Below, piece after piece: positions 4,327 through 34,455 of a stretch of 42,116 nucleotides of DNA. The notes beneath the pieces were generated by a model. That model made no database searches. It worked only from the letters and a program-made list of their open reading frames with translations, and was not told the DNA's origin. Position 1 is the stretch's first letter. The number at the start of each line of letters is the position of its first letter. The stretch is from Candidatus Uhrbacteria bacterium. GTDB taxonomy: Bacteria > Patescibacteriota > Patescibacteriia > JACPHY01. Location: assembly GCA_043813445.1 (NCBI GenBank), contig JBDRLD010000063.1, forward strand, positions 1 through 42,116, read 5' to 3'. Both the position numbers and the translations under genes were made by a program.

Positions 4327-4513
4327 GTCGGCATCACATCGAAGGCGCCGCACCATGCGGTGCCTTTTCGTGTAACAAATCCGGCTGCATGACGTATATG
4401 TTTCATGAAAGGTCGGATAGTATTGCGGCGCCAATTACCGTGCTACGCTGTATGCGAGAATACTGGAAATACTATGGGGATCGCGAGGCGCACCTCGCAA
4501 CCCGTTCACGGTC

Positions 4514-5074
4514 ATGGATGCAGCTCCGCACGACATTAATGCCGCGTTTCATAGTGGCGAGCCACAGGCGGTGGGGGCGGCGTACGATGCGTACGTCAGC
4601 TCGGTGTATGCGTTCATCTACTATCGGACGCACCACCGAGAAACCGCAGAGGACCTCACCGGTGATGTGTTCCGGAAGGCGGTTGAGCACGCGCGATCGT
4701 ACGATCCCGCGAAAGCATCGCTAAAGACCTGGCTACTTCGCATTGCACGAAATACCGTTATCGATCATGTTCGTGCGCATCGATCCGTCGTATCCATTGA
4801 CGATGTCCAGACCATACCGAGCGGTATCGATGTCGAGCGCGTCGCGGAGGCACGTCGGACATTGGAAGAGGTGCGGAAGCATCTCGACGCGCTGCCGGAG
4901 CGGCAGCGGGAGGTCGTGATGATGCGGGTATGGGACGGACTGTCGTATGCGGAGATTGCGACGATTCTTGGGAAGCGCGAGGGTGCCTGCAAGACCACAT
5001 TCTGCCGTGCGATGAAGCAGCTTCGTATACTTGTGCCGCTGCCAGCGTTCATCGCATTGCTACTTGCGAGCTAA
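4514..5074 (+). CDS. ECF-type RNA polymerase sigma-70 family factor
   Basis: Region 2 (AEDLTGDVFRKA, WLLRIARNTVIDHVRA) and region 4 HTH (LSYAEIATILGKREGACKTTFCRAMKQL). Confidence 0.85.
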   Translation: MDAAPHDINAAFHSGEPQAVGAAYDAYVSSVYAFIYYRTHHRETAEDLTGDVFRKAVEHARSYDPAKASLKTWLLRIARNTVIDHVRAHRSVVSIDDVQTIPSGIDVERVAEARRTLEEVRKHLDALPERQREVVMMRVWDGLSYAEIATILGKREGACKTTFCRAMKQLRILVPLPAFIALLLAS

Positions 5075-5076
5075 TT

Positions 5077-6723
5077 ATGGAACATGTCAACGTCAACCAA
5101 CTTATCGAAGAGATTATCGCTTTTGAGCCCTCGCTTGCCGAGCGGCGTGAGGAGGTGCGCGCGCTCGTCATAAAATTGCTCGCGGTGAAGCCCGATGTGC
5201 GCGTCGATGAGCAGTTCGTGCAGCAGCTCCGTTCAACACTCATCATGCGCGCCGCCGACGCCGCGGTGTCGTCATCAATTCAAAATAGCAGTATGCCATT
5301 CTTCAAAAAACCACTTTTCGTCGGCGGGGTTGCACTCGCGTGCATTTTACTCCTCGTCGGCACGTTCTCTATCGTGCAGCGCTATCGCGGATCATCCGTG
5401 TCGTTTGAAGCGAGACAGACTGCAAAGCTCGGCGCACGTGCATTTGGAAGTCTCGGGCTCACAAACGGTGAGACAGACGATTCGACACAGGAAGCACTCA
5501 TGGGCGTGCGGGGAGAGAGTTTCGACGTCGGTTTCGGTACTCAAACAGGACTCTCATCGGAAGGATTCCTCGATCGTGTCGTGAGCAGTATCGCTCCGAC
5601 CGTGGGGTATGGTGGTGGCGGATCGGCTACCACCACGGCCACATCCCCTGCTGCAGATGCGAAAATGATCGGCATGCCAGCACCATGGTACCGGCAGGTT
5701 CGCTACGAATACGCCGGTGACGCGGTGACGATTCCTGAAGGCGAGCTGTCGGTACATCACCGCGTTTCAAGTGCTGATACTGATGTTGGCATTATTGGCC
5801 TCCTCCGCGGGGTCAGCATGGGACTCTTCAATGTCTCCGCGCTTTCCGACGTGCGCGTGCAGTCGCTCGCTTTTGTGGAGGATCGTACTAACGGCTATCA
5901 GGTGAACGTCGATCTCGCGAATGGACGGGTGAACATCTACCCGAATTACGGGCAGTGGCAATTTGATGATACTTGCGCGAATGTGAAAGGCGGCTGTGCT
6001 CAGCGTCAACTCACCATGGCCGACCTACCCGCGGATACGGAGATTCTCCGTATTGCGAGCGACATGTTGGTGAAATTCGGTATCGATCGAAAGGCGTATG
6101 GCGAGCCGGTTATTGATTCGAATTGGAGACAGTGGCTTGGGAGCGGGGAAGCGGAATATGTTCCGGAAGTGATTCAGGTGCTCTACCCGATGACGGTTGA
6201 TGGGCGCCGCGTCGTGATGACGAACGGTTACCCGTACGGGCTTGAAGTCGGCGTGAATATTCGTCTCATGAAGGCACAGCATCTGTCGAACCTCATGACA
6301 TGGACGTACGAATCCTCGTCGTACGATGTGCTACGAGATACGGACGAGCTTGTACGCATTGCAGAGCTCGGCGGCATGACGCCGGTTCCGTACTACGAGA
6401 GGATGGAGCAGCTTGCGGTCGAGACGGTCAGCGCGCAACTGGGAACGCCAGAGCTCGTGTATGTGTTGCACTATCGGTACGGGAAAGACCAACCGGATGA
6501 GTTCCTTGTTCCGGCGCTTGCCTTCCCGGTCACCACTCCGGACGTCGTCGGCGTCTATGGGCCTGCAGTCATTGTTCCGCTCGTAAAGGAGGTATTGAGC
6601 GACTATCAGCAGGGTGACGACGTACGCGACATTCCACTCCCCGAGCCGGTTCCAATGCCAATGATCGAGTCTGGCAGCAATGCAGTGTCAAACGATACTG
6701 CTCCACCACGATCCATAGAATAG
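5077..6723 (+). CDS. putative anti-sigma factor / membrane-anchored protein with large extracytoplasmic domain
   Basis: ATG 5077 lies 3 nt after the sigma stop. It has a short cytoplasmic N-terminus, one TM helix (LFVGGVALACILLLVGTFSIV) and a C-terminal domain of about 430 aa. The ORF-track start 4930 overlaps the sigma gene and is rejected. Confidence 0.6.
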   Translation: MEHVNVNQLIEEIIAFEPSLAERREEVRALVIKLLAVKPDVRVDEQFVQQLRSTLIMRAADAAVSSSIQNSSMPFFKKPLFVGGVALACILLLVGTFSIVQRYRGSSVSFEARQTAKLGARAFGSLGLTNGETDDSTQEALMGVRGESFDVGFGTQTGLSSEGFLDRVVSSIAPTVGYGGGGSATTTATSPAADAKMIGMPAPWYRQVRYEYAGDAVTIPEGELSVHHRVSSADTDVGIIGLLRGVSMGLFNVSALSDVRVQSLAFVEDRTNGYQVNVDLANGRVNIYPNYGQWQFDDTCANVKGGCAQRQLTMADLPADTEILRIASDMLVKFGIDRKAYGEPVIDSNWRQWLGSGEAEYVPEVIQVLYPMTVDGRRVVMTNGYPYGLEVGVNIRLMKAQHLSNLMTWTYESSSYDVLRDTDELVRIAELGGMTPVPYYERMEQLAVETVSAQLGTPELVYVLHYRYGKDQPDEFLVPALAFPVTTPDVVGVYGPAVIVPLVKEVLSDYQQGDDVRDIPLPEPVPMPMIESGSNAVSNDTAPPRSIE

Positions 6724-8162: not shown

Positions 8163-8906
8163 CTAGGTTCGATTCTGCGTTTTCTTAAGCTCCTCGACCG
8201 TTAGCGTATCGCTGATTATATACTGTCCCACGCGGGTGCGTTCTAGTGCAGATAGGTAGCCGCCGACGCCGAGCTGCTCACCAATATCACGTGCGAGCGA
8301 GCGGATGTAGGTGCCGGGTCCGCAGACGACGCGGAGTATGAGTTGAGAGTTGAGAGTGGATAGTTGATAGTTGAGGAGCTCAATCTCCTTAATTTCGACC
8401 TCGCGCGGCTCCATCTGTATGTCCTCACCCTTCCGCATGCGGCGGTGTGCCGGCTTGCCTTTGATTTTGATTGCGCTGTACTTTGGAGGGACTTGTTGGA
8501 TGTGGCCGATGAATTGTTGGAGTATAGGTAGTACTTCTTGGAGCGTTGGAGGTAACCACCCCCCCTCGCCCCCCCACCGAGAAGGATTGGGGGAATCTAT
8601 TTTTTTCTCCCCCACCCACCGGGAGGGGGAGTTAGAGGGGGTGGGGGTGACGGTTCCCTCCGCATCATCCGTGTCAGAGGTTGCACCGAGTGTGATGGTG
8701 GCGATGTACTCCTTTTCCTTTGCGACAATACCCGCGAGCTGTTTGGTTGCGTCGCGGCCAATACCAATAACAAGCACGCCGCTTGCCATGGGATCGAGTG
8801 TTCCCGCATGACCAACACGCCGCTCGCCGGTGATGCGGCGCACGGCGTTGACGATATCGTGCGAGGTCGGCCCCTTCGGTTTGTTGATGGCAACGATGTT
8901 GTCCAT
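8163..8906 (-). CDS. truB: tRNA pseudouridine(55) synthase TruB
   Basis: KPKGPTSHDIV and catalytic GHAGTLDPMASGVL motifs, plus C-terminal GTYIRSLARD. Contains two repeat-derived in-frame insertions. Confidence 0.9.
   Translation of the reverse strand: MDNIVAINKPKGPTSHDIVNAVRRITGERRVGHAGTLDPMASGVLVIGIGRDATKQLAGIVAKEKEYIATITLGATSDTDDAEGTVTPTPSNSPSRWVGEKKIDSPNPSRWGGEGGWLPPTLQEVLPILQQFIGHIQQVPPKYSAIKIKGKPAHRRMRKGEDIQMEPREVEIKEIELLNYQLSTLNSQLILRVVCGPGTYIRSLARDIGEQLGVGGYLSALERTRVGQYIISDTLTVEELKKTQNRT
8341..8376. repeat. heptamer array AGTTGAG/AGTTGAT (5 units) inside truB
   Basis: AGTTGAG AGTTGAG AGTGGAT AGTTGAT AGTTGAG. The same family occurs at 17183-17216, 32486-32510 and 33696-33726. Confidence 0.8.
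8555..8648. repeat. GC-rich palindromic element (two inverted units) inside truB
   Basis: ACCCCCCCTCGCCCCCCC...GGGGGAA, a short T-rich spacer, then CTCCCCCACCCACCGGGAGGGGGAGTTAGAGGGGGT. Related units occur at 29821-29882, 33348-33467 and 34157-34195. Confidence 0.75.
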
Positions 8907-11745: not shown

Positions 11746-11908
11746 ACGAGGAACCGAGGTATCAAGCGTACTCGCGCAGATACTGAGCGGGGACACCAAG
11801 CTCGCATTCACCCATCCCCTTCGACTCCACTCCGTTTCGCTCAGGGAGTAACGGTGTACGAGGAACCGAGGTATCAAGCGTACTCGCGCAGATACTGAGC
11901 GGGGACAC
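11746..11908. repeat. 51-nt direct repeat pair (11746-11796 and 11858-11908)
   Basis: ACGAGGAACCGAGGTATCAAGCGTACTCGCGCAGATACTGAGCGGGGACAC occurs twice, identical, 112 nt apart, in the tRNA-Ile/tRNA-Phe spacer. Confidence 0.85.
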
Positions 11909-11932
11909 AAAGTCTATCTCATTCACTGCAGG

Positions 11933-13306: not shown

Positions 13307-14791
<1,485 letters not shown>

Positions 14792-17052: not shown

Positions 17053-17760
17053 TCAAGAGCGTCGGATTTTGCGCCACGCATCGATTTTTTTGTGATCGCC
17101 TTCCAGTAGTATCTTCGGCACGCGCCAATGCACACCGCGCTTAGGTGAAAAATCGGCTGGTCTCGTGTAGGCGGGTACACCGAGTTGATATTTGATATTT
17201 GATAGTTGAGAATGAAGCTCTCCAAAGCTTTCGTCCTCCAGCGATTCCGGATCGCCAAGCACGCCCGGAATCAAGCGGGTCACCGCATCGACGATGGTCA
17301 GTGCGGGAAGCTCGCCGCCGGTGAGGACGTATGGGCCAACACACACCTCCTCATCCGCGAGATGCTTCGCAACGCGTTCATCTACGCCTTCGTACCGGCC
17401 ACAGATGAGCACGAGTCGATTGTACTTCTTCGCGTACCGTTCCGCGTCGCGCTGCGTGAAGGGCTTGCCTTTGGCACTCATCAGCAGCACGCGAGTGCGG
17501 CGACGCGGGACGCTGGATGCTGGACGCTGGACGCAACGTAGCGCGCGCAAGGCACGATAGATCGGTTCCACCATCATCACCATACCCGCTCCACCACCGA
17601 ACGGCTTGTCGTCCACATTTCGGTGTTTCCCGGGGGCCCACTTACGAAGATCGTGCACGTCAAATCGAGCGAGTCGCTTTGTCTGTGCGCGCTTTAGCAT
17701 CGCCGCATTAACATACGGCGTAACGACCTCTGGGAAAATGGTGATGATATCTATTTTCAT
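17053..17760 (-). CDS. trmD: tRNA (guanine37-N1)-methyltransferase TrmD
   Basis: Motifs IITIFPE, VDDKPFGGGAGMVM, ICGRYEGVDERV, YVLTGGELPA and YTRP. Confidence 0.9.
   Translation of the reverse strand: MKIDIITIFPEVVTPYVNAAMLKRAQTKRLARFDVHDLRKWAPGKHRNVDDKPFGGGAGMVMMVEPIYRALRALRCVQRPASSVPRRRTRVLLMSAKGKPFTQRDAERYAKKYNRLVLICGRYEGVDERVAKHLADEEVCVGPYVLTGGELPALTIVDAVTRLIPGVLGDPESLEDESFGELHSQLSNIKYQLGVPAYTRPADFSPKRGVHWRVPKILLEGDHKKIDAWRKIRRS
17183..17216. repeat. heptamer array (AGTTGAT family) inside trmD
   Basis: AGTTGAT ATTTGAT ATTTGAT AGTTGAG AATGAAG, translated HSQLSNIKYQL. Confidence 0.75.
17508..17534. repeat. heptamer array GGACGCT (4 units) inside trmD
   Basis: GGACGCT GGATGCT GGACGCT GGACGC. 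The same array occurs at 22450-22469 in smc. Confidence 0.8.
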
Positions 17761-21394: not shown

Positions 21395-21892
21395 TTAGTC
21401 GTCCTCTTCGGGCGGCGGCGGGATGTCGTCGCAGTTCTCGCCGTTGGAGCGGCATCCGTCGTCGCGACGCTCGCCACGGTCCTCCTCGTCCCAGAGGCCG
21501 CCGGTGCCGGTGAAGGCGTTGGCGGCGCGGCACCGCATGCGATCCTGCGCGGTCTTCGCGGCTTTGAGGCAATCCTCGGCGGCGTTCCGCTGTTCGGCTT
21601 GCTTCGCGTCCTCGCGCGAGGCCCGCGCGTCGTCGATGTCGTCGCAGTTCTCGCCGTTGCTGCGGCAGCCATCGTCGCGACGCTCGCCACGGTCCTCCTC
21701 GTCCCAGAGACCACCGGTGCCGGTGAAGGCGTTGGCGGAGTGGCACACCATCTTTTCGTACTCATCCTGCGCCAGCGCGAGGCAGCGCTGGAGCGGGTTA
21801 CGAGGCAGCGCCTCGTCGTCGGCGTTGATGTGTTGCTGGGTCGCGGCGCAACCGCCCAGCATCAGAATCATCGCGCAATGGATCACTCTCAC
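21395..21892 (-). CDS. putative lipoprotein with internally duplicated Cys-rich acidic module
   Basis: The GTG start has AAGGGAG upstream. The signal MRVIHCAMILMLGGC ends in a lipobox-like LGGC. The 34-aa module ANAFTGTGGLWDEEDRGERRDDGCRSNGENCDDI is present twice. Confidence 0.6.
   Translation of the reverse strand: MRVIHCAMILMLGGCAATQQHINADDEALPRNPLQRCLALAQDEYEKMVCHSANAFTGTGGLWDEEDRGERRDDGCRSNGENCDDIDDARASREDAKQAEQRNAAEDCLKAAKTAQDRMRCRAANAFTGTGGLWDEEDRGERRDDGCRSNGENCDDIPPPPEEDD
21422..21736. repeat. intragenic 102-nt duplication (21422-21523 and 21635-21736)
   Basis: The two copies differ at 6 of 102 nt, and all differences are synonymous. Confidence 0.85.
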
Positions 21893-22089: not shown

Positions 22090-24306
22090 TCACCGTGTAA
22101 CTTGAGCGGCCTCTTCCAATTTCATGGAAAGTAATTTGCTTGCGCCATCGCCTGCCATCGTCACACCGTAGATGGCTGCAGCGCGCTCCATGGAGTAGCG
22201 GTTGTGTGTGACCACGAGGAATTGTGTCTGTTTCGCGAGGTCCTTCAGAATTTCTGCGAAGCGCACCGAGTTTGATTCATCGAGTGCCGCGTCTACCTCA
22301 TCGAGTACGACAAATGGCGACGTGCTTGCAGAGATGATTGCGCAGAGAAGTGCGATGGCGGTAAGCGCACGCTCGCCACCGGAGAGCATGGAGATCGATT
22401 TGATGCGTTTGCCGGGCGGCGTCGCTTGGATGTCGATGCCGGCAACGCCGGACGCTGGACGCTGGACGCCGGGCGCCCGGTCTTCAGGAGGAATATCATG
22501 GATGGTCCCTCCTTCGTTAACATCATCCTCCTGCAGTTTTTCTTCTATTTTGAGGAGGGTGAGCTTTGCGGATCCGCCGCCAAAGAGTTGGCGGAAATAT
22601 CGCTCAAAGTGTTCATTGATTTTCGTGAATGATGTGTGGAATGCACGATCGATTTCCTCCTCGAGTTCGGCGATGATGCGGTTCAGAGAATGGAGAGACG
22701 AGCGGAGGTCAACCGTTTGTTGTTCGAGGAAGGAAACTCGTTCTTTTGTTTCCTCATACTCGCGCACCGTTTCCTCGTCGAGCGTTCCGATCGCTGCCAG
22801 GTCGCGCTGAAGACGCATAATGCGATGCGATGCACCTTCCGGGGCTGCGGTGTCGGGCCGCGAGAGCGACTCCGGTTCACGGGCATCTTCGAAGTCTCGA
22901 AGAATCTCCGCGCGCAGATCTTCGCGGCGTTGCTCCGAGCGAGCGAGCTCGATGCGGAGATCGTTCGCATGCTGTGCTGTGCGGTTCAGCGTGAGCTGCT
23001 CGTCGCGGTATCGGCGTTGCAGGTCGAAAAGCGCACCCTTCTTTTTTCGTTCGTCCGCGTGGTAATCGGCCATCCGTCGCTGTACATCTCGAAGCTTATC
23101 CTCGATTGCTTTCAGTGCGTTCTCGGTATCGTGGAGTTCTTTCGGTGGTGCGTCGTCTTGTTCCGGTGCGGTGCGTAGGCGTATCGCGGCTATGCGTTCG
23201 TGAAGACCGCGTAGACGAGTGAGGGTCGGCTGAAGGTCGTCGAGCGACGTGATGAGACGGAGCGTTTCGAGGAAGGCATCGAAATCCGTGAGCAGTGTAT
23301 CGAGATCGGCGGTAAGTGCAGATGCGGGTAGCTCCTCGTGCTTCTCCGTGCGTTGCCGGATGTCATGCTTCATGGCAAGTACATGCTCGCGCAGCGACTG
23401 GCGTCGATCGACAAGTGTCTCGTACTCGTGCTGGAGCTTCATGAAAATATCGTCCTTCCGTTCCTCGATTTCGATCGTGTTGAGTTGCGCTTGAATGCCA
23501 TCGACAGCTTGCTGGAGACGCTTGCGTTCCGCGTCGGCTTCAGCACATGCGCGCTGCCCCTTCGAAAGCTTATCGCCAAGAGTGTGCCAACGCGCACCAT
23601 GGTACTGCTCGAGGAGTGTGGTTAGCTCGCGCTCCAGTTCTTCTCGTTGCTCGAGCCGTCGAACTTGTCGTGTGAGCGAGCGAAGTCGCGGGGTCAGTTC
23701 CTGGAGAAGTGTCTCACCCTGACGGAGATTCTCCTCGGCGCGCGAGAGTTTTCTAATCGCACCATCGCGTTTCAGCTCGGCAGGACGAATACCTGCCGCC
23801 TCATCGAAGAACGACTTTCGTGCCATGGGAGAAGCGAGGAGAAACTCATCGACCATTCCCTGACCGATGATCGAGTATGTGCGTTGACCGATACGCGATT
23901 CTGCGAGGAGGAGCTGGATGTCTTCGCGTCGCACCCTGGTGCCGTTGAGGAGATATTCGGATTCCCCGGAGCGATAGACGCGTCGGCCAATGACCACCTC
24001 GGTGAAGTCAATGGGTGCAGAATGATCTTCGTTGTTGAGGGTGAGTGTGACTTCGGCGATGCCAAGGCGAGGTCGTTTCGGTGTGCCTGCGAAGATGACG
24101 TCTTCCGCTTTCTTCCCGCGGAGGAGTTTCATGGATTGCTCGCCGAGTACCCAACGAACGGAGTCAACGACACAGGATTTACCTGAGCCGTTCGGGCCGA
24201 CGATCGCGGTGATGCCGCGTGAGTCACTTGTCGGTGGAAGGAATTCGAGCGTTACCGCGTTTGCGAACGACTTGAATCCGTTGATTTCGATTTTTTGTAA
24301 CCACAT
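22090..24306 (-). CDS. smc: SMC-family chromosome segregation ATPase, unusually short (738 aa)
   Basis: N-terminal head (FKSF, GPNGSGKS Walker A, VIFAGT) and C-terminal head (LSGGERALTAIALL signature, VLDEVDAALD Walker B, VVTHN). Only about 365 aa of coiled coil lie between them. Confidence 0.85.
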   Translation of the reverse strand: MWLQKIEINGFKSFANAVTLEFLPPTSDSRGITAIVGPNGSGKSCVVDSVRWVLGEQSMKLLRGKKAEDVIFAGTPKRPRLGIAEVTLTLNNEDHSAPIDFTEVVIGRRVYRSGESEYLLNGTRVRREDIQLLLAESRIGQRTYSIIGQGMVDEFLLASPMARKSFFDEAAGIRPAELKRDGAIRKLSRAEENLRQGETLLQELTPRLRSLTRQVRRLEQREELERELTTLLEQYHGARWHTLGDKLSKGQRACAEADAERKRLQQAVDGIQAQLNTIEIEERKDDIFMKLQHEYETLVDRRQSLREHVLAMKHDIRQRTEKHEELPASALTADLDTLLTDFDAFLETLRLITSLDDLQPTLTRLRGLHERIAAIRLRTAPEQDDAPPKELHDTENALKAIEDKLRDVQRRMADYHADERKKKGALFDLQRRYRDEQLTLNRTAQHANDLRIELARSEQRREDLRAEILRDFEDAREPESLSRPDTAAPEGASHRIMRLQRDLAAIGTLDEETVREYEETKERVSFLEQQTVDLRSSLHSLNRIIAELEEEIDRAFHTSFTKINEHFERYFRQLFGGGSAKLTLLKIEEKLQEDDVNEGGTIHDIPPEDRAPGVQRPASGVAGIDIQATPPGKRIKSISMLSGGERALTAIALLCAIISASTSPFVVLDEVDAALDESNSVRFAEILKDLAKQTQFLVVTHNRYSMERAAAIYGVTMAGDGASKLLSMKLEEAAQVTR
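22450..22469. repeat. heptamer array GGACGCT (3 units) inside smc
   Basis: GGACGCT GGACGCT GGACGC, translated VQRPAS as in trmD. Confidence 0.8.
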
Positions 24307-24312
24307 AGTGGC

Positions 24313-24402
24313 GACTACGGTCTAGAGTCTACGGACTACAGCAAGTCAAATTCCGACTACAGAAATTTCCCGACTGTAGTCGGTGGTCCGTAGACCGTAG
24401 TC
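24313..24402. repeat. inverted arrays of GACTACG-type heptamers (long imperfect palindrome)
   Basis: Left arm GACTACG GTCTAGA GTCTACG GACTACAG. Right arm GACTGTA GTCGGTG GTCCGTA GACCGTA GTC. Inner 9-bp hairpin CGACTACAG/CTGTAGTCG. Confidence 0.75.
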
Positions 24403-29543: not shown

Positions 29544-29596
29544 AGGGGTAGTGAAATGGGGAGAAAATCATGCGTGACATTTCCAGTGTACCCTGA

Positions 29597-29618
29597 ATTT
29601 CTAGCATATGCGAGAAAT
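29597..29618. promoter_or_regulatory. 22-bp near-perfect palindrome upstream of hsp20 (candidate operator)
   Basis: ATTTCTAGCAT|ATGCGAGAAAT with 10 of 11 positions symmetric, 54-75 nt upstream of the hsp20 ATG. Confidence 0.35.
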
Positions 29619-29640
29619 ACGCTCCATTGAGCGGCAGACC

Positions 29641-29669
29641 TTGACAATTCGGCGGATTTGTGGTATATT
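29641..29669 (+). promoter_or_regulatory. promoter TTGACA-N17-TATATT
   Basis: Hexamers at 29641-29646 and 29664-29669. It is followed by a leader of about 310 nt before the ATG at 29989. Confidence 0.6.
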
Positions 29670-29739
29670 TTGTCGTTATGGAATCAGCCGTACAATGGCT
29701 GTATTCCCGTACGTTTCCAATTCGTATGAGTTATTCAGT

Positions 29740-29909
29740 GTCATTGCGAGTAAGGCGAAGCCGAGCGCGGCAATCCCGTTGTAAGTGAACCGGATCGCCA
29801 CCCGCCACAAGCTTCGCACGCCACCCCCTCGTACTCCCCCTCCCGCACTGCGGCGGACTCGGAAGCTAGAAGAGGGGGAGGCCAGCGCGAGGATGCGACT
29901 CGCGATGAC
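29740..29909. mobile_element. MITE-like 170-bp element with 12-bp terminal inverted repeats
   Basis: The TIRs are GTCATTGCGAGT (29740-29751) and ACTCGCGATGAC (29898-29909), matching at 11 of 12 positions. The core 29821-29882 carries the GC-rich unit ACCCCCTCGTACTCCCCC...GGGGGAG, also found inside truB, tsaD and tsaE. Confidence 0.4.
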
Positions 29910-29988
29910 ATAAGACATGGCATGAGATGATCTCCAACCCTTGAACGTAGGGGCGGGGCATAGTCCCCGCCCGCGAAGGAGAAGAACG

Positions 29989-31596
29989 ATGAGTCGAATC
30001 GAAGAGCTTCAGCGTGAGATCGAATCGCTGGAGCCGCCTGCGGACTTCGGCGATCTCGTACGGCGCGCGCTTGCAACGCGCAAGGACGTGGCACCTGAGG
30101 AGGTGTGTACGGATCATGCAGCACCATGCGCGGAGTGCGAAGCGTATTCGTTGACCGCGATCAGGTCGAGTACAGACAAAGATTGGGGTGTGATGCGCGA
30201 TTCGGCGTGGCTGTCCTGCGCCAAGAACATCCTTCTAACGTACGCCGGTGTTGGCGTGTGTGCGGCGACGGCGTTGTTTGGAAGCGGTTTATCCCCGCTG
30301 CTCTACACCCTCGGCATGGTCGTCGGTGGTGTGTCCGCACTCGTCGGCGGATGGAGAAGGAATCGCGACCACAATCGTGTAAACGGAGTAAAAGGATCAC
30401 CTGTCCAAGCGGGGTTCTTTTGCGGGGGATTCACGATCGTGAATCTCCTCGCGCCGATCTGGTTCTGGTACCGGCCGATCTGTCTCGGGCTGCACAAGCT
30501 CGGGCATGGCTGGCAGCGGGTGAAGGCGTGGTTCAAGCGGCGGTTCGTGGACGACTGCGACGAGTGCCGGAAGTGGCGCATGCAGGCGGGCGGGAAGGAA
30601 CAATTCGGTCTGAAGCTGCTCACTGGCCTGCTCGTGAATGGCGGTGTGATGATGATGTTGACATGTCTGGCTACAGGTCTGATTTTGGGGATGAGCGAGA
30701 ATAGCGTCGATGTTTACTCCTTGATCTTTTCGCTCGGAACCTTGACAGCATTCATCGGGATTTTCATCGGAATAAAATGTGGTGTCGATTGCACGATGGC
30801 CATGATGGCGCCGTGGCGAGCATTGCGCCACCTCATCCGTTCCTGCTTCGGCCTGCGATACGTGTTCCATCGACACCTGCACGAGCGATCGGCTGCGAAA
30901 GAGATCGACACCATCGCGGCGCGACTGCAGAGCGAGGTGAGCGATGAGGATCTCCGGGTGCTCATTCGGCAGTACCTCAGCGATGAGCTGATCTGCGCCA
31001 CGCGCGATCGCCTAATCGGCGACGACAGCACGTACGCGCGGCTGGCCGCGGCTACCGCGCAGTACATCGCGCGCGCCAAGATGCGGCTCGAGCAGTACGC
31101 GGCATTCGAAGCGAGCGAGGACCCGGTGATCCGCGAGCAGAGTGCGCAGCTCAGCAGCAGCGTCGAGCAGTTCCTTGGCGAGAACGAAGCGTGTCGGCAG
31201 GTGCTCGAGGAGTACCGCGCAATGGTCGCCGCGAAGTTTGCCGAGCTCGAAGCGCAGATCGGAAACGTGGACGAGCGCATGCAGTTCCTCGCGATCGCTC
31301 GCGATACGGACGCGTTGCTCGCCGACGGCAAGGATCACGCGCGACTCGTGCGCGAGGCCGTCGTCTCGCTGACGTGCGAGCTTTTCCGGGCCACCGCGGC
31401 CATCCGAGCGGCCATCGACGCCGCGCTCGCGCGTGCGAAGAGCGAGACCGAAGTGGAAGTCGCAGCGGCTTCGAACGAAGTGCTCGCGTTCGCCGTGCTA
31501 CGCAACACAGCGCAGCACCTGCGCGGCAGCATGGACAATGCCCCAGCCGAGGCCGAGCAGCGCCCCGCGCCCCAGGCCCAGCCCGTGGCGCAGTAG
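29989..31596 (+). CDS. hypothetical polytopic membrane protein with Cys motifs and C-terminal coiled-coil domain
   Basis: ATG 29989 has GAAGGAG upstream. There are about six TM helices between aa 75 and 300, the motifs CTDHAAPCAECE and DDCDECRKW, and an alpha-helical Ala/Glu/Arg-rich C-terminal half. Confidence 0.6.
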   Translation: MSRIEELQREIESLEPPADFGDLVRRALATRKDVAPEEVCTDHAAPCAECEAYSLTAIRSSTDKDWGVMRDSAWLSCAKNILLTYAGVGVCAATALFGSGLSPLLYTLGMVVGGVSALVGGWRRNRDHNRVNGVKGSPVQAGFFCGGFTIVNLLAPIWFWYRPICLGLHKLGHGWQRVKAWFKRRFVDDCDECRKWRMQAGGKEQFGLKLLTGLLVNGGVMMMLTCLATGLILGMSENSVDVYSLIFSLGTLTAFIGIFIGIKCGVDCTMAMMAPWRALRHLIRSCFGLRYVFHRHLHERSAAKEIDTIAARLQSEVSDEDLRVLIRQYLSDELICATRDRLIGDDSTYARLAAATAQYIARAKMRLEQYAAFEASEDPVIREQSAQLSSSVEQFLGENEACRQVLEEYRAMVAAKFAELEAQIGNVDERMQFLAIARDTDALLADGKDHARLVREAVVSLTCELFRATAAIRAAIDAALARAKSETEVEVAAASNEVLAFAVLRNTAQHLRGSMDNAPAEAEQRPAPQAQPVAQ

Positions 31597-31637
31597 GCAC
31601 CTCGACGACCAAGCGCAACACCGACCATGGAGAGGAC

Positions 31638-31982
31638 ATGACCAAAACAGTATACCTCCTCGCACGACTGAACATCACCGGTCCCGTGCCGGTGGTGAGC
31701 GAGGTATTGATTTCGTGGAATCACCCGGCGGAGATGATCGAGGTAAGTCGTGGTTCTTTCTACGTAATCGTCTGGTCGATTGACAGCAAGGATGCGCCGG
31801 ATGCATTCGATCGCCTACGCCGTATCGTGTTCGAACGTAATGATCTCGCGTGGGCGCGGCCGTACCTCGAGGAAGAGGGTGAAGTACCGGAAGTAGTGGC
31901 GTTGCGCCATCGGTGCCTCAGCTCCACGGCCAAGCACCTCGTTGCGGTGGCGCGCTCGTTCCTTGAGTGTGTAAATCTGTAG
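31638..31982 (+). CDS. hypothetical protein
   Basis: ATG 31638 has GGAGAGG upstream. 114 aa. The upstream Arg-rich part of ORF 31191..31982 overlaps the previous gene and is rejected. Confidence 0.55.
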   Translation: MTKTVYLLARLNITGPVPVVSEVLISWNHPAEMIEVSRGSFYVIVWSIDSKDAPDAFDRLRRIVFERNDLAWARPYLEEEGEVPEVVALRHRCLSSTAKHLVAVARSFLECVNL

Positions 31983-32012
31983 CGCAAGCGCAGCGCGATC
32001 AGACAAATCAGG

Positions 32013-32047
32013 ACGACCCCTACTCACATGGGGGTCGTTTCATTTTT
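32013..32047 (+). terminator. intrinsic terminator
   Basis: ACGACCCC...GGGGTCGT followed by TTCATTTTT. Confidence 0.6.
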
Positions 32048-32050
32048 CAC

Positions 32051-32095
32051 CAATAGCAAAAGCTCCCCATGCGAGATGGGGAGCTTTTGCTATTG
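32051..32095. terminator. perfect 20-bp-stem palindrome abutting the tRNA-Glu 3' end
   Basis: CAATAGCAAAAGCTCCCCAT-GCGAG-ATGGGGAGCTTTTGCTATTG. Confidence 0.5.
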
Positions 32096-32165
32096 ACCCC
32101 ACCGGGAATCGAACCCGGATTTCAAGGATGAAAACCTTGCGTCCTGACCACTAGACGATGGGGCC
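32094..32165 (-). tRNA. tRNA-Glu (anticodon TTC)
   Basis: Acceptor GGCCCCA/TGGGGTC (one G-U pair), D arm TCGTCTAGTGGTCAGGAC, anticodon arm CAAGG-TTTTCAT-CCTTG, T arm CCGGG-TTCGATT-CCCGG. Confidence 0.85.
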
Positions 32166-32475
32166 GGAGTACGTACCCTCCTTTAAAGCCTTTCGAAGCA
32201 TTCCAGAGTTTTTAATAAGACGTTCTCGTTGCAGCGCTTCCTTTTTTGTGTCGTGTTCTTCCTGGTAGATGAGCGTATATGGGCGATGTGGTTTTGTCGA
32301 TTGAACTTTTCCTGCATTGTGTTCTCGAAGACGACGGGCGACATCATTTGTTTCCCCGATGTAAAGTGTTTTATTGGAGACGCTCTGTAGTACGTACACG
32401 AAATTCAACATAGGTGCGTCTCAGGCGTAGCCTGACCCGGCTACGCCGGGCTGACCACTAGACGATGGGGCCGGA
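32144..32475 (-). mobile_element. GIY-YIG gene cassette flanked by a 25-bp direct repeat of the tRNA-Glu 5' end
   Basis: CTGACCACTAGACGATGGGGCCGGA occurs at 32144-32168 and 32451-32475 (identical). It corresponds to tRNA positions -3 to +22. GC content between the repeats is lower than in the flanks. Confidence 0.5.
32151..32411 (-). CDS. GIY-YIG nuclease family protein
   Basis: 86 aa. FVYVLQS...LYIGETNDVARRLREHN is the GIY-YIG core, and a conserved E occurs in ALQRERLIK. The last 5 codons and the TAG stop lie inside tRNA-Glu. Confidence 0.8.
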   Translation of the reverse strand: MLNFVYVLQSVSNKTLYIGETNDVARRLREHNAGKVQSTKPHRPYTLIYQEEHDTKKEALQRERLIKNSGMLRKALKEGTYSGPIV

Positions 32476-32560
32476 AGAGTTGACAAGTTGAGAATGGATA
32501 GTTGATAGTTGCAGGACAGGCACAGGAACAGCAAACCACATACAATACACTACGTCAATC

Positions 32561-33841
32561 ATGGTAGCATGGTCGTACATGGGAGAGAAACAGACCATTC
32601 GCGTTCTCGGAATTGAGTCGTCATGCGATGAAACCGCGGCGGCCATTGTTCATGTTGCACGAACAAGGGATCGCGGGCGTTGGCGGTATGCGTTTGACGT
32701 GCGGTCGAATGTTGTTGCATCGCAGGTGAAGACGCACGCGAAGTACGGAGGCGTCGTTCCGGAAATCGCGGCACGCGCACATGTGGAGGCCATTATTCCG
32801 GTCATCGATGAGGCGGTTGGGCTACGGAAGTTCGACGCGGTTGCGGTGACGTCCGGGCCTGGTCTCGTCACATCGCTTGCGGTGGGCGTGGAGACTGCAC
32901 GGACCATCGCGTTCGCGCGTCAGCTCCCGGTCATCGGGGTGAATCATATTGAGGGTCATATCCTCTCTGCCCTACTCAAGCCAGGCAGAGAGGAACAAGG
33001 AACAGGAAATAGAAGACAAGAAACTCAGCACGTTCCCATGTCCCATGTCTCTTATCCCATGTTCCCTACAGTTTGTCTCGTCGTCTCAGGCGGTCATACC
33101 GAGCTGCTGCTGATGCGGGGATGGGGGAAGTACGAGCTGATTGGCGCGACACGGGATGATGCGGTTGGTGAAGCGTTCGATAAGGTGGCAAAGCTGCTCG
33201 GCCTCGGGTATCCGGGCGGGCCAATCGTATCGCAGCGTGCGGCGCAGGGCGATGCAGCGGCGTTTGATCTTCCGCGACCGATGATGGATTCGGATGACTT
33301 TGATTTTTCGTTCTCTGGGTTGAAGACTGCGGTGCGTTACATGATTTCTCCACCTCCTGCGAGGAGGGGGAGAGTAAGAGGGGGTCGTGCGCGAGCAGTC
33401 ATCTCTGAGCGTAATCGAATCGTCAACAATACCACCCCCTCTCACTCCCCCTGCGGGGCAAGGGGAGAACCGTCCGAGGCGGAAGGGGGGGAACAAGTTG
33501 GGACGCCCAAACGCCGGAAAGAGGTCTCCGATATCTGCGCGAGCTTCCAGCAAGCGGCTGTCGATGTGCTCGTGGCGAAGACGGTGCGCGCGGCGCGGGA
33601 GTTTGGCGCGAAGGCCGTGCTGCTTGGTGGGGGCGTGGCGGCGAATACGCAACTCCGTCATCAACTCGGCAATGCGCTGCAGCAAGAGATACCAGCTATC
33701 ACCTATCACCTATCAACTATCAATTACTGCGGTGATAACGCGGCCATGATCGCCGCGGCAGGTGGTGTGCGGCTCCTCTCGGGACAGCAGACGCCATGGA
33801 AACGACTTGATGTAAATCCGAATTGGGAGTTAGGGAGGTAA
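32561..33841 (+). CDS. tsaD: tRNA N6-adenosine threonylcarbamoyltransferase TsaD
   Basis: Motifs VLGIESSCDETAAA, YGGVVPEIAARAH, NHIEGH, VSGGHTEL, FSFSGLKT and GDNAAMIA. An alternative start lies at 32579. Three repeat-derived insertions are present. Confidence 0.9.
   Translation: MVAWSYMGEKQTIRVLGIESSCDETAAAIVHVARTRDRGRWRYAFDVRSNVVASQVKTHAKYGGVVPEIAARAHVEAIIPVIDEAVGLRKFDAVAVTSGPGLVTSLAVGVETARTIAFARQLPVIGVNHIEGHILSALLKPGREEQGTGNRRQETQHVPMSHVSYPMFPTVCLVVSGGHTELLLMRGWGKYELIGATRDDAVGEAFDKVAKLLGLGYPGGPIVSQRAAQGDAAAFDLPRPMMDSDDFDFSFSGLKTAVRYMISPPPARRGRVRGGRARAVISERNRIVNNTTPSHSPCGARGEPSEAEGGEQVGTPKRRKEVSDICASFQQAAVDVLVAKTVRAAREFGAKAVLLGGGVAANTQLRHQLGNALQQEIPAITYHLSTINYCGDNAAMIAAAGGVRLLSGQQTPWKRLDVNPNWELGR
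32982..33067. repeat. inverted heptamer arrays (GGAACAN / ATGTCCC) inside tsaD
   Basis: AGAGGAA CAAGGAA CAGGAAA TAGAAGA CAAGAAA ... CGTTCCC ATGTCCC ATGTCTC TTATCCC ATGTTCC. Confidence 0.75.
33348..33467. repeat. two inverted GC-rich units inside tsaD
   Basis: CTCCACCTCCTGCGAGGAGGGGGAGAGTAAGAGGGGGT (33348-33385) and its approximate reverse complement ACCCCCTCTCACTCCCCCTGCGGGGCAAGGGGAG (33434-33467). Confidence 0.75.
33696..33726. repeat. heptamer array (AGTTGAT family, reverse orientation) inside tsaD
   Basis: GCTATCA CCTATCA CCTATCA ACTATCA ATT is the reverse complement of the AGTTGAT/AGGTGAT units. Confidence 0.75.
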
Positions 33842-33903: not shown

Positions 33904-34455
33904 ATGAAAGAGAAATACACGAGCCACAGCGAAGAGGAGACTATGCGGATCGCGGCAACGCTTGCGGCCGAGCTTCATGGTGGCGAGGTGGTGCTGCTCG
34001 AGGGGGAGCTTGGTGCGGGGAAGTCTGTGTTTGTTCGTGGGCTCGCGCACGCGCTCGGTGTCACGCACCGCATGCCAAGCCCCACCTTTGTGCTTATGCG
34101 CGTGTACGGAATGAAACAGACGGAGAATAGAGAACAGAGAACAAAGAATCGGATCCCCACCCCCTCTCACTCCCCCTCCCGGCGGGAGGAGGAGAAAAGA
34201 AAGTGTTCCATGTCCACCAGCCATTCCTTCGCTCAGTCGCTTCGTTATTTCATCCACGTCGACGCGTACCGTGTGAACGACGCGCAGGAGCTTGATGCAA
34301 TCGGCCTACGCGAGTGGCTTGGCCGTGAAGATGCGATTGTCGCCATCGAGTGGGGCGAGCGTGTAGCACCGACATTACGCGACATACGTATTATCCAAGT
34401 CCTCCTGTCCATTGGACGCACGGCGGAAATGCGGAGCATTCACATCGTGCGGTAA
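33904..34455 (+). CDS. tsaE: tRNA threonylcarbamoyladenosine biosynthesis ATPase TsaE
   Basis: P-loop LEGELGAGKSVFVRG, SPTFVL and HVDAYR motifs. Carries an insertion of about 40 aa made of repeat DNA. Confidence 0.85.
   Translation: MKEKYTSHSEEETMRIAATLAAELHGGEVVLLEGELGAGKSVFVRGLAHALGVTHRMPSPTFVLMRVYGMKQTENREQRTKNRIPTPSHSPSRREEEKRKCSMSTSHSFAQSLRYFIHVDAYRVNDAQELDAIGLREWLGREDAIVAIEWGERVAPTLRDIRIIQVLLSIGRTAEMRSIHIVR
34117..34230. repeat. composite repeat element inside tsaE (heptamer arms flanking a GC-rich unit)
   Basis: CAGACGG AGAATAG AGAACAG AGAACAA AGAATCG, then ACCCCCTCTCACTCCCCCTCCCGGCGGGAGGAGGAG, then GTGTTCC ATGTCCA CCAGCCA. Confidence 0.75.

Follow-up and report, generated by a model that had tools for sequence, protein, structure and literature searches.

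Selfish repeats that colonize housekeeping genes in frame are a textbook oddity of Rickettsia, and the title of a 2002 paper by Ogata is said to call the in-frame insertion of Rickettsia palindromic elements (RPEs) 'a unique but recurrent feature'. Among repeats of other kinds, the STRR (short tandemly repeated repetitive) sequences of cyanobacteria were reportedly found by Vioque in 1997 inside the RNase P RNA gene of heterocystous species. As recounted in the relevant portion of a review (PMC10969869), RPEs form in-frame, fold-compatible insertions in unrelated metabolic genes (Ogata et al. [quoted passage not shown] The passages on STRR sequences in a 2009 article (PMC2670836) describe them as 7-bp tandem repeats of unknown function, located in promoter or intergenic DNA, and call the origin of the heptamers unresolved. 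Tandem repeats within the ORFs of Borgs are near-perfect and virtually unique to each locus, and their unit lengths are all divisible by three (PMC9879509). Here we analyse the gene tsaD and its surroundings in a 42-kb stretch of DNA from one metagenomic contig (the window), which holds two classes of short dispersed repeat: heptamer arrays of 3–6 units (about 25–40 nt each) and a GC-rich palindromic REP/MITE-like element. Both lie in frame within coding genes, where they are probably tolerated and translated. In tsaD they occupy three places, listed below the gene itself.

Positions 32561–33841, plus strand: tsaD coding sequence (CDS), intact, 426 amino acids; from Pfam, PDB matches, an AlphaFold model and Foldseek.
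Positions 32978–33061, plus strand: loop i, residues 140–167, 11 in-register heptamers, net gain of about 22 residues; from Tandem Repeats Finder (TRF), a period-7 scan, alignments and predicted local distance difference test (pLDDT) values.
Positions 33344–33481, plus strand: insert ii, residues 262–307, GC-rich inverted-repeat element, net gain of about 46–50 residues; from folding, unit copies, alignment and pLDDT.
Positions 33690–33726, plus strand: site iii, array of two CTATCAC and two CTATCAA units, the AGTTGAT family in reverse; from TRF, the period-7 scan, alignments and pLDDT.

Judged by alignment and a structural model, the tsaD of the window is an intact, canonical gene of the TsaD/Kae1/Qri7 family, the N6-threonylcarbamoyladenosine (t6A) threonylcarbamoyltransferases of ASKHA-type fold. 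Pfam PF00814 (TsaD) matches its product at 2.2e-82, in stretches broken by the inserts, solved bacterial TsaDs in the PDB match it at about 4e-72, and its MVAW start is kept in relatives. Every column that is invariant in alignments of 22 and 75 sequences is present, including H129 and H133 (HxxxH), SGGHT at 176–180, D199/D200, GGP at 219–221, G357/G358 and D392/N393, which bears out the observation of an earlier note on this DNA that the conserved catalytic motifs are intact around the inserts. An AlphaFold2 model built from the 75-sequence alignment had a mean pLDDT of 88.2 and a predicted template modelling score (pTM) of 0.87, and its Foldseek target-normalised TM-score was 0.90–0.92 against the TsaD of E. 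coli/Salmonella (3zet_B, 4wq5_A). In the model, the two inserts that add length, i and ii, form loops of low confidence on a TsaD fold that is canonical elsewhere: low pLDDT was restricted to them, and site iii lay inside the confident core. The closest database relatives of the protein are 55–57% identical, and those with names, lower in the list, are Patescibacteria such as Candidatus Uhrbacteria. On the evidence of these best TsaD relatives and of synteny with contigs resembling those of the candidate phyla radiation (CPR), the host is a member of the Patescibacteria (CPR).

Loop i is a true loop expansion made of 7-nt tandem arrays. Positions 32984–33060 read, heptamer by heptamer, GGAACAA GGAACAG GAAATAG AAGACAA GAAACTC AGCACGT TCCCATG TCCCATG TCTCTTA TCCCATG TTCCCTA, that is, a GGAACAN array, one spacer unit and a TCCCATG array, whose register is carried on by the native FP codons; TRF and the period-7 scan called arrays at 32991–33012 (GGAACAN) and 33033–33056 (TCCCATG). 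The loop from HIEGH to VSGGHT has 28 residues in the window versus 6 in E. coli and in minimal CPR TsaDs, a gain of about 22 residues where the earlier note had estimated about 21 between NHIEGH and VSGGHTE. Here the model first drops to low confidence (pLDDT below 50 at residues 152–159). The note had also read 32982–33067 as inverted heptamer arrays; the arrays and their sequences are there, but their inverted relation is weak. The two are only loosely complementary, and a hairpin between them was rejected, the RNA fold of −17.5 kcal/mol (z = −0.43) being no better than that of shuffles. The TCCCATG unit has no clear second copy, and GGAACAN has loose relatives only (32513–32530 and a GAGAACA array in tsaE).

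Insert ii is also a true expansion. The linker following FSFSGLKTAVRY is 61 residues long in the window versus 12–14 in E. coli and in the related loci L086 and L004, and alignments give a gain of about 46–50 residues, in line with the roughly 48 previously proposed after FSFSGLKT. The two inverted GC-rich units with a 48-nt spacer that had been reported at 33348–33467 correspond to an 18-nt unit, ACCCCCTCTCACTCCCCC, which is inverted at 33368–33385 (minus strand) and direct at 33434–33451 (plus strand). The hairpin (33346–33469) folds at −57.7 kcal/mol (z = −2.96). Lying between confident helices, insert ii is where model confidence drops for the second time (pLDDT below 50 at residues 290–308), and its stops by frame number 0/1/2, the gene frame alone being stop-free. 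Peptides predicted to span the inserts of the window TsaD include IVNNTTPSHSPCGAR and one across QETQHVPMSHVSYPMFPTV. An insert at the same codon in the relative L085 lacks the two 18-nt units and has in common with insert ii its left end (GATTTCTCCnCCT...GGGGGAGA) and the GGGCAAGGG motif, which suggests that part of insert ii may be older than the split between the window and L085, with additions made later.

By alignment and model, site iii is a core segment written in heptamer repeats and not an insertion. It encodes AITYHLSTIN where the consensus is xxxYxxPxxx before Y[TC]GDNAAM, with Ser385 in place of a nearly invariant Pro, and it is modelled confidently (pLDDT block means of 94–98) with a strand at 381–384. 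Its length differs by 0 residues from CPR orthologues and by 2 from E. coli, against the approximately 5 residues that were supposed to be added before GDNAAMIA, and its length and residue pattern, but not its sequence, are common to all orthologues. Thus, of the three in-frame tsaD insertions claimed in the earlier note, i and ii stand, and iii is the native PxxxYxxPxxxY[TC]GDN segment at unchanged length, although the array there does belong, as described, to the AGTTGAT family in reverse orientation. The accompanying idea that each feature came from its own repeat family is borne out for ii and iii, both of which recur elsewhere in the window; the TCCCATG unit of loop i, as noted, has no clear second copy.

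The feature is real and wider than that tsaD-only account, the repeats being a property of the genome, with the same kinds in frame in tsaE, truB, trmD and smc. A simple autocorrelation scan found 12 period-7 arrays in the window, compared with 0.9 expected from a first-order Markov model, and no arrays of periods 8–12. The unit families are AGTTGAT, GACGCTG, GGAACAG/GAGAACA, TCCCATG and GACTACG, and most arrays lie inside Pfam-identified genes (truB 1, trmD 2, smc 1, tsaD 3, tsaE 1). The GC-rich 18-nt unit has six copies versus 0.01 expected, of which five are inside tsaD, tsaE and truB. Every in-gene copy of a repeat keeps the frame and is stop-free in it. At its five loci in the window, the AGTTGAT family aligns over its array (about 35 nt), with the variant units in matching order, and the flanks have nothing in common; likeness confined to the array speaks for dispersal of a discrete sequence. 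All coding AGTTGAT copies are in the stop-free orientation, which is forced, since an array of at least three units is read in all three phases. The remaining copies, with the tsaE gene, are as follows.

Positions 32476–32540, plus strand: AGTTGAT array, then a CAGGACA/GGAACAG-like array, intergenic, just upstream of tsaD.
Positions 33904–34455, plus strand: tsaE CDS, 3' of tsaD.
Positions 34114–34215, plus strand: in-frame tsaE insert, about 41 residues extra versus T. maritima TsaE.
Positions 8556–8646, minus strand: GC-rich inverted pair in truB (CDS 8163–8906, minus strand), in-frame insert of about 25 residues.
Positions 8336–8376, minus strand: AGTTGA(G/T) heptamer array in truB, encoding NYQLSTLNSQL.
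Positions 17181–17213, minus strand: AGTTGAT/ATTTGAT heptamer array in trmD (CDS 17053–17760, minus strand), SQLSNIKYQL, variable loop.
Positions 17500–17536, minus strand: GACGCTG heptamer array in trmD, encoding VQRPASSVPRR.
Positions 22443–22480, minus strand: GACGCTG-family heptamer array in smc (CDS 22090–24306, minus strand), encoding APGVQRPASGVAG.
Positions 24313–24402, no strand: inverted pair of GACTACG-type heptamer arrays, intergenic, between divergent smc and DHH.
Positions 29823–29840, plus strand: the sole intergenic copy of the GC-rich unit in the window, within a composite palindromic region (29741–29915).

The tsaE insert consists of a GAGAACA heptamer array (34120–34150) and a GC-rich unit (34159–34176) with its short palindrome. 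In truB the GC-rich pair folds at −60.1 kcal/mol (z = −2.39), is open in the used frame alone and falls in a gap relative to the M. tuberculosis TruB structure 1sgv; the truB heptamer array aligns gap-free to a hairpin of the same structure and is thus in place, not an insertion. The smc array entails no length change versus the SMC of L004, and the trmD and smc copies of the GACGCTG array are 92% identical. Of the repeats whose folding was tested, the smc/DHH intergenic pair gave the strongest structure, a hairpin of −45.2 kcal/mol (z = −5.09). In the composite region at 29741–29915, the GC-rich unit copy sits within outer arms, GTCATTGCGAG...CTCGCGATGAC, that resemble GTCATTTCGAGCG...CTCGAAATGAC elements in frame in the tsaD of the relatives L001, L086 and L087.

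Insert ii and the inserts in truB and tsaE resemble RPEs in belonging to a dispersed short palindromic family that is in frame in unrelated housekeeping genes and also present in non-coding DNA, and presumably in being both compatible with the fold and translated; insert ii combines a long hairpin with multiple copies in frame in unrelated genes (tsaD, tsaE and truB, and T2SSE of L001). The host, however, is one of the Patescibacteria and not Rickettsia, and insert ii is likened to RPEs by behaviour, not by sequence. Its core is an 18-nt GC-rich unit, single or as an inverted pair, whereas RPEs are about 150 bp long and each encodes a conserved peptide, and it coexists with heptamer arrays, which RPEs lack. 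Homology of insert ii to RPE families is unlikely, given the different phylum and GC content. With MITEs and REP elements the GC-rich repeat shares short, non-autonomous, palindromic, multi-copy form, and inverted arms are present at insert ii; no clear target-site duplication, parent insertion sequence or REP-associated tyrosine transposase (RAYT) was seen in the window, and five of the six copies are intragenic rather than extragenic.

The heptamer arrays resemble STRR sequences in their tandem 7-nt units, in the several unit families per genome, in their dispersal, at times as inverted arrays forming hairpins, and in that they can sit in a functional gene without destroying it. Unlike the STRR sequences of the accounts cited above, those of the window lie mostly in protein-coding genes, where they are read in all three phases as 7-residue-periodic peptides, and in a CPR host rather than a cyanobacterium, although one Saganbacteria locus (L016) has arrays too. 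Like the Borg repeats, they are non-disrupting tandem repeats in ORFs, and like them they would give conserved proteins extra disordered segments at variable positions; here, by contrast, the unit measures 7 nt, arrays are short as well as imperfect, and one array family occurs at several loci. The full-text literature searched gave no account of heptamer arrays or in-frame repeat insertions in CPR/Patescibacteria, which is not proof of novelty.

A codon-by-codon comparison of seven clade members (the window, L001, L002, L004, L085, L086 and L087) showed that the element found at loops A, i and ii varies with the genome. The elements of the relatives, and that of the window at loop ii, are as follows.

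Loop i: GCAGAAC heptamer arrays in L002 and L087.
Loop i: GC-rich palindrome in L001.
Loop i: GTCATTTCGAGCG...CTCGAAATGAC-type palindrome in L086.
Loop ii: GC-rich palindrome in the window and L085.
Loop ii: GTCATTTCGAGCG...CTCGAAATGAC-type palindrome in L001 and L087.
Loop ii: AGTTGAT array in L002.
Loop ii: nothing in L004 and L086.
Loop A: GC-rich palindrome in L086.

Thus, at the level of aligned sequences, related genomes have unrelated repeat elements in the same TsaD loops. The GC-rich unit occurs also in the T2SSE gene of L001 and in tsaD of L086 and L088, and a heptamer array (TTTCAAA/TTTCAGA) lies just upstream of tsaD in L001 and L087, as one does in the window. At site iii a 23-residue segment has equal length in six of the seven loci, L086 being three residues shorter, and is written in different heptamers: CTATCAA in the window, five CTTCCAA units in L085 (LPTSNFLLPTSNY) and five CCGAATA units in L087 (VPNTEYRIPNTDY). 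Successive units are read in different phases, so protein-level selection cannot explain the nucleotide periodicity; an array is probably tolerated there because the native PxxxYxxPxxxY has a 7-residue period. Two neighbouring observations concern the relatives alone. At site ii of the L001 tsaD (1102–1284), a palindrome, GGGACCTCTGCAAAACC...GGTTTTGCAGAGGTC, encloses a GTCGTTTCGAGCG-type palindrome and is nested in a CCAGATT heptamer array, in frame throughout. In L002, about 1.5 kb downstream of tsaD, a pair resembling a diversity-generating retroelement (bAvd plus a reverse transcriptase in two ORFs) occupies 5058–6449.

We then took a census of 167 tsaD-relative loci (1.25 Mb) among the matches listed by two genome/metagenome contig scans and look-ups, the scans by conserved peptide patterns having listed relatives at 35–45% identity; the census figures in this text all refer to these listed matches. 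Inside tsaD there were 57 arrays of period 7, compared with 1, 1 and 0 of periods 6, 8 and 9, and period 12, like periods 6 and 9, was essentially absent; these counts include a few duplicate contigs (L002/L003, L117/L118). Period-7 density was 0.33/kb inside tsaD versus 0.069/kb in the flanks, and 53 of the 57 arrays fell at residues 139–165 (22), 230–237 (17), 292–320 (6) and 380–385 (8). The hot spot at residues ~230–237 (window 33249–33272), just before the conserved LPRP, is a fourth one, with no repeat in the window itself and a GC-rich palindrome-type insert in Uhrbacteria P0046. These figures suggest that, among tandem repeats within tsaD, 7-nt arrays predominate in CPR-like contigs and gather at four loops; the TsaD loops that carry repeats in the window are, by the same alignments, hot spots in many such contigs.

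Named genomes with arrays in tsaD were Magasanikbacteria, Wildermuthbacteria and Moraniibacteriota, all CPR, together with the Saganbacteria locus L016; no Firmicutes, Proteobacteria or Chloroflexi locus listed had an array inside tsaD. The 138 arrays of the census comprise 96 different canonical heptamers. The L097 tsaD has a near-identical 34-nt CGACACT array at 4406–4440 and 4677–4710 (site i and about residue 232), a sign that an entire array may have been copied recently. In L004, a syntenic relative, 17.6 kb are free of arrays, so the array load differs between lineages. Identical arrays or inserts recur in contigs from independent samples (L002 versus L003, L117 versus L118, and an Uhrbacteria cluster), and as for the presence or absence polymorphism of each insert that the earlier note had proposed to seek by comparing populations, within clusters of at least 90% identity only start-codon calls or fragments differ in length.

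The reading we favour, with a probability of roughly 0.7, is that short dispersed repeats are tolerated in genes where they are in frame and stop-free, and are then translated. Genes would acquire repeat copies through insertion, or through repair or gene conversion that is ectopic and templated by repeats. Copies that shift the frame, introduce stops or hit structure would be lost to purifying selection, and the survivors would pile up in a few permissive loops. The ribosome would read straight through the repeats to give disordered surface peptides, 7-residue-periodic ones such as YQLSTIN in the case of heptamer arrays, and where the protein can accommodate a 7-residue periodicity, arrays might replace a native segment without changing its length (site iii of tsaD, the truB hairpin). 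Functionally, this would be the RPE situation, in which selfish or neutral DNA in coding genes is translated rather than removed. Signs consistent with translation are that all inserts are in frame, that the GC-rich inserts are open in the used frame alone and that the AGTTGAT orientation is stop-free.

Several points weigh against this reading. Translation is deduced from reading frames, and the argument from intact ORFs is partly biased, relatives having been found as full-length proteins. Neither a transposase, a RAYT nor a reverse transcriptase was found by Pfam among about 40 ORFs of the window, a GIY-YIG protein being the only find, and there are no clear target-site duplications at the insert boundaries, which are themselves fuzzy. 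The searched databases held no relative above 57% identity, and therefore no pair of empty and filled sites. The in-place arrays at site iii and in truB need insertion with an equal deletion, or a conversion-type replacement, which is less parsimonious than insertion alone. Finally, the 96 units in 138 arrays, and the different units at one site between genomes, could mean that arrays are generated in situ as well as copied.

This last possibility, the chief rival as far as the arrays are concerned, would have arrays arise by period-7 slippage or duplication from local sequence, followed by concerted evolution, with nothing inserted and shared units put down to convergence or local conversion. 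It would account for the diversity of units, for the equal length and differing heptamers of site iii in the window, L085 and L087, for the native FP codons that continue the TCCCATG register in loop i and for the conservation of the period alone. We nevertheless consider it unlikely as a general explanation, since one array of about 35 nt recurs, its variant units in unchanged order, at five unrelated window loci and in L002, the GACGCTG array is nearly the same in trmD and smc, L097 carries one array at two tsaD loops, and single 7-nt steps would frameshift essential genes. In-situ generation and dispersal may both be at work. Adaptive loops, in which repeat-derived disordered segments are selected, for example for CPR-specific partner binding or regulation, would fit the recurrence of different repeats at the same four TsaD loops in many lineages and the stability of inserts across samples, and have a precedent in Borg repeats that create disordered regions (PMC9879509). 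That the sequences at one loop are unrelated between genomes, that L004 and L086 have no element at site ii and that the same DNA families are also intergenic all make adaptation improbable; moreover, unit lengths in the Borg coding repeats are multiples of three, as against 7 nt here, and tolerance accounts for the hot spots equally well.

The inserts might instead be removed before a protein is made, as intron-like RNA, by ribosomal bypassing over the GC-rich hairpin or by protein splicing. The hairpins of insert ii and the truB element are indeed very stable, at about −58 to −60 kcal/mol, and structures of this kind are seen at bypass sites (byp elements, T4 gene 60). Yet all inserts, whether in the seven clade genomes or in four further genes of the window, have lengths divisible by 3 and no stops in the gene frame, and the other frames of the GC-rich inserts hold stops, a constraint that removal would not impose. 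An Rfam search yielded neither an intron nor any other RNA family in tsaD, and only 16S rRNA and tRNAs in the window; segments of 22–50 residues are too small for an intein; and the protein core needs what site iii and the truB array encode. Removal is accordingly a very remote prospect, and we give hardly any credence to a pseudogene in decay or an artefact of assembly: the window comes from one metagenomic contig, has a single protein-database member, and repeats can misassemble, but the ORF is intact with every invariant residue, neighbouring essential genes are alike, and the same phenomenon appears in independent JGI, ENA, NCBI and Logan assemblies. Two further candidates were considered. 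A telomerase-like fixed template was rejected because of the 96 distinct canonical units in 138 arrays, and a phase-variable contingency locus does not fit arrays that are imperfect, identical across independent samples and free of length variants in clusters of at least 90% identity.

The gene order of the window is trmD, KH, S16, smc, DHH, clpP, vanW, DUF3006, hsp20, tsaD ... tsaE, T2SSE, ftsH, and this order is common to the contigs of L004, L086 and L001. In L001 and L004, alr lies between tsaD and tsaE; it is missing from the window. The stretch of about 3 kb between hsp20 and tsaD (29568–32560) is missing from the syntenic relatives L004 and L086, and it holds a 551-residue ORF (29941–31596) without a Pfam match and reaches a GC content of 0.64. 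At its tsaD end, a GIY-YIG ORF (32151–32411, minus strand) lies between a complete tRNA-Glu gene (32094–32165, minus strand) and a perfect 25-nt copy of the 5' end of that tRNA (32451–32475 = 32144–32168), and the end of the ORF (..SGPIV*, including the stop) is read from the tRNA-Glu 5' end, so that the region 32094–32475 looks like a small GIY-YIG cassette integrated at a tRNA-Glu gene. Two longer direct repeats were also observed in the window. One, of 117 nt and 91% identical (21422–21538 and 21635–21751, copies 213 nt apart), lies among overlapping unannotated ORFs. The other, of 55 nt and 98% identical (11746–11800 and 11858–11912), lies between tRNA-Phe and tRNA-Ile, downstream of a 16S rRNA gene (13307–14790, minus strand) that no 23S rRNA gene adjoins.

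The window presents, in a genome-reduced lineage unrelated to Rickettsia, the outcome known from there, in at least five essential genes within 42 kb, and adds a second type of repeat whose 7-nt unit is incompatible with the codon period. A bolder proposal, which we hold only tentatively and regard as doubtful, is that a dedicated mechanism, specific for the period and unspecific for sequence, is common to CPR and to cyanobacteria and their relatives and keeps writing 7-nt arrays into genomes, essential genes included. If true, it would be a general engine of loop evolution that produces 7-residue-periodic loop peptides and overwrites even core segments. If in-frame colonization by such repeats is general, it would partly explain the so far unaccounted-for variation in length of CPR proteins and their 'low-complexity' loops, and would caution annotators and structure predictors over repeat-derived segments. 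It would also offer, with many independent events at known sites, a tractable system for how heptamer repeats arise.

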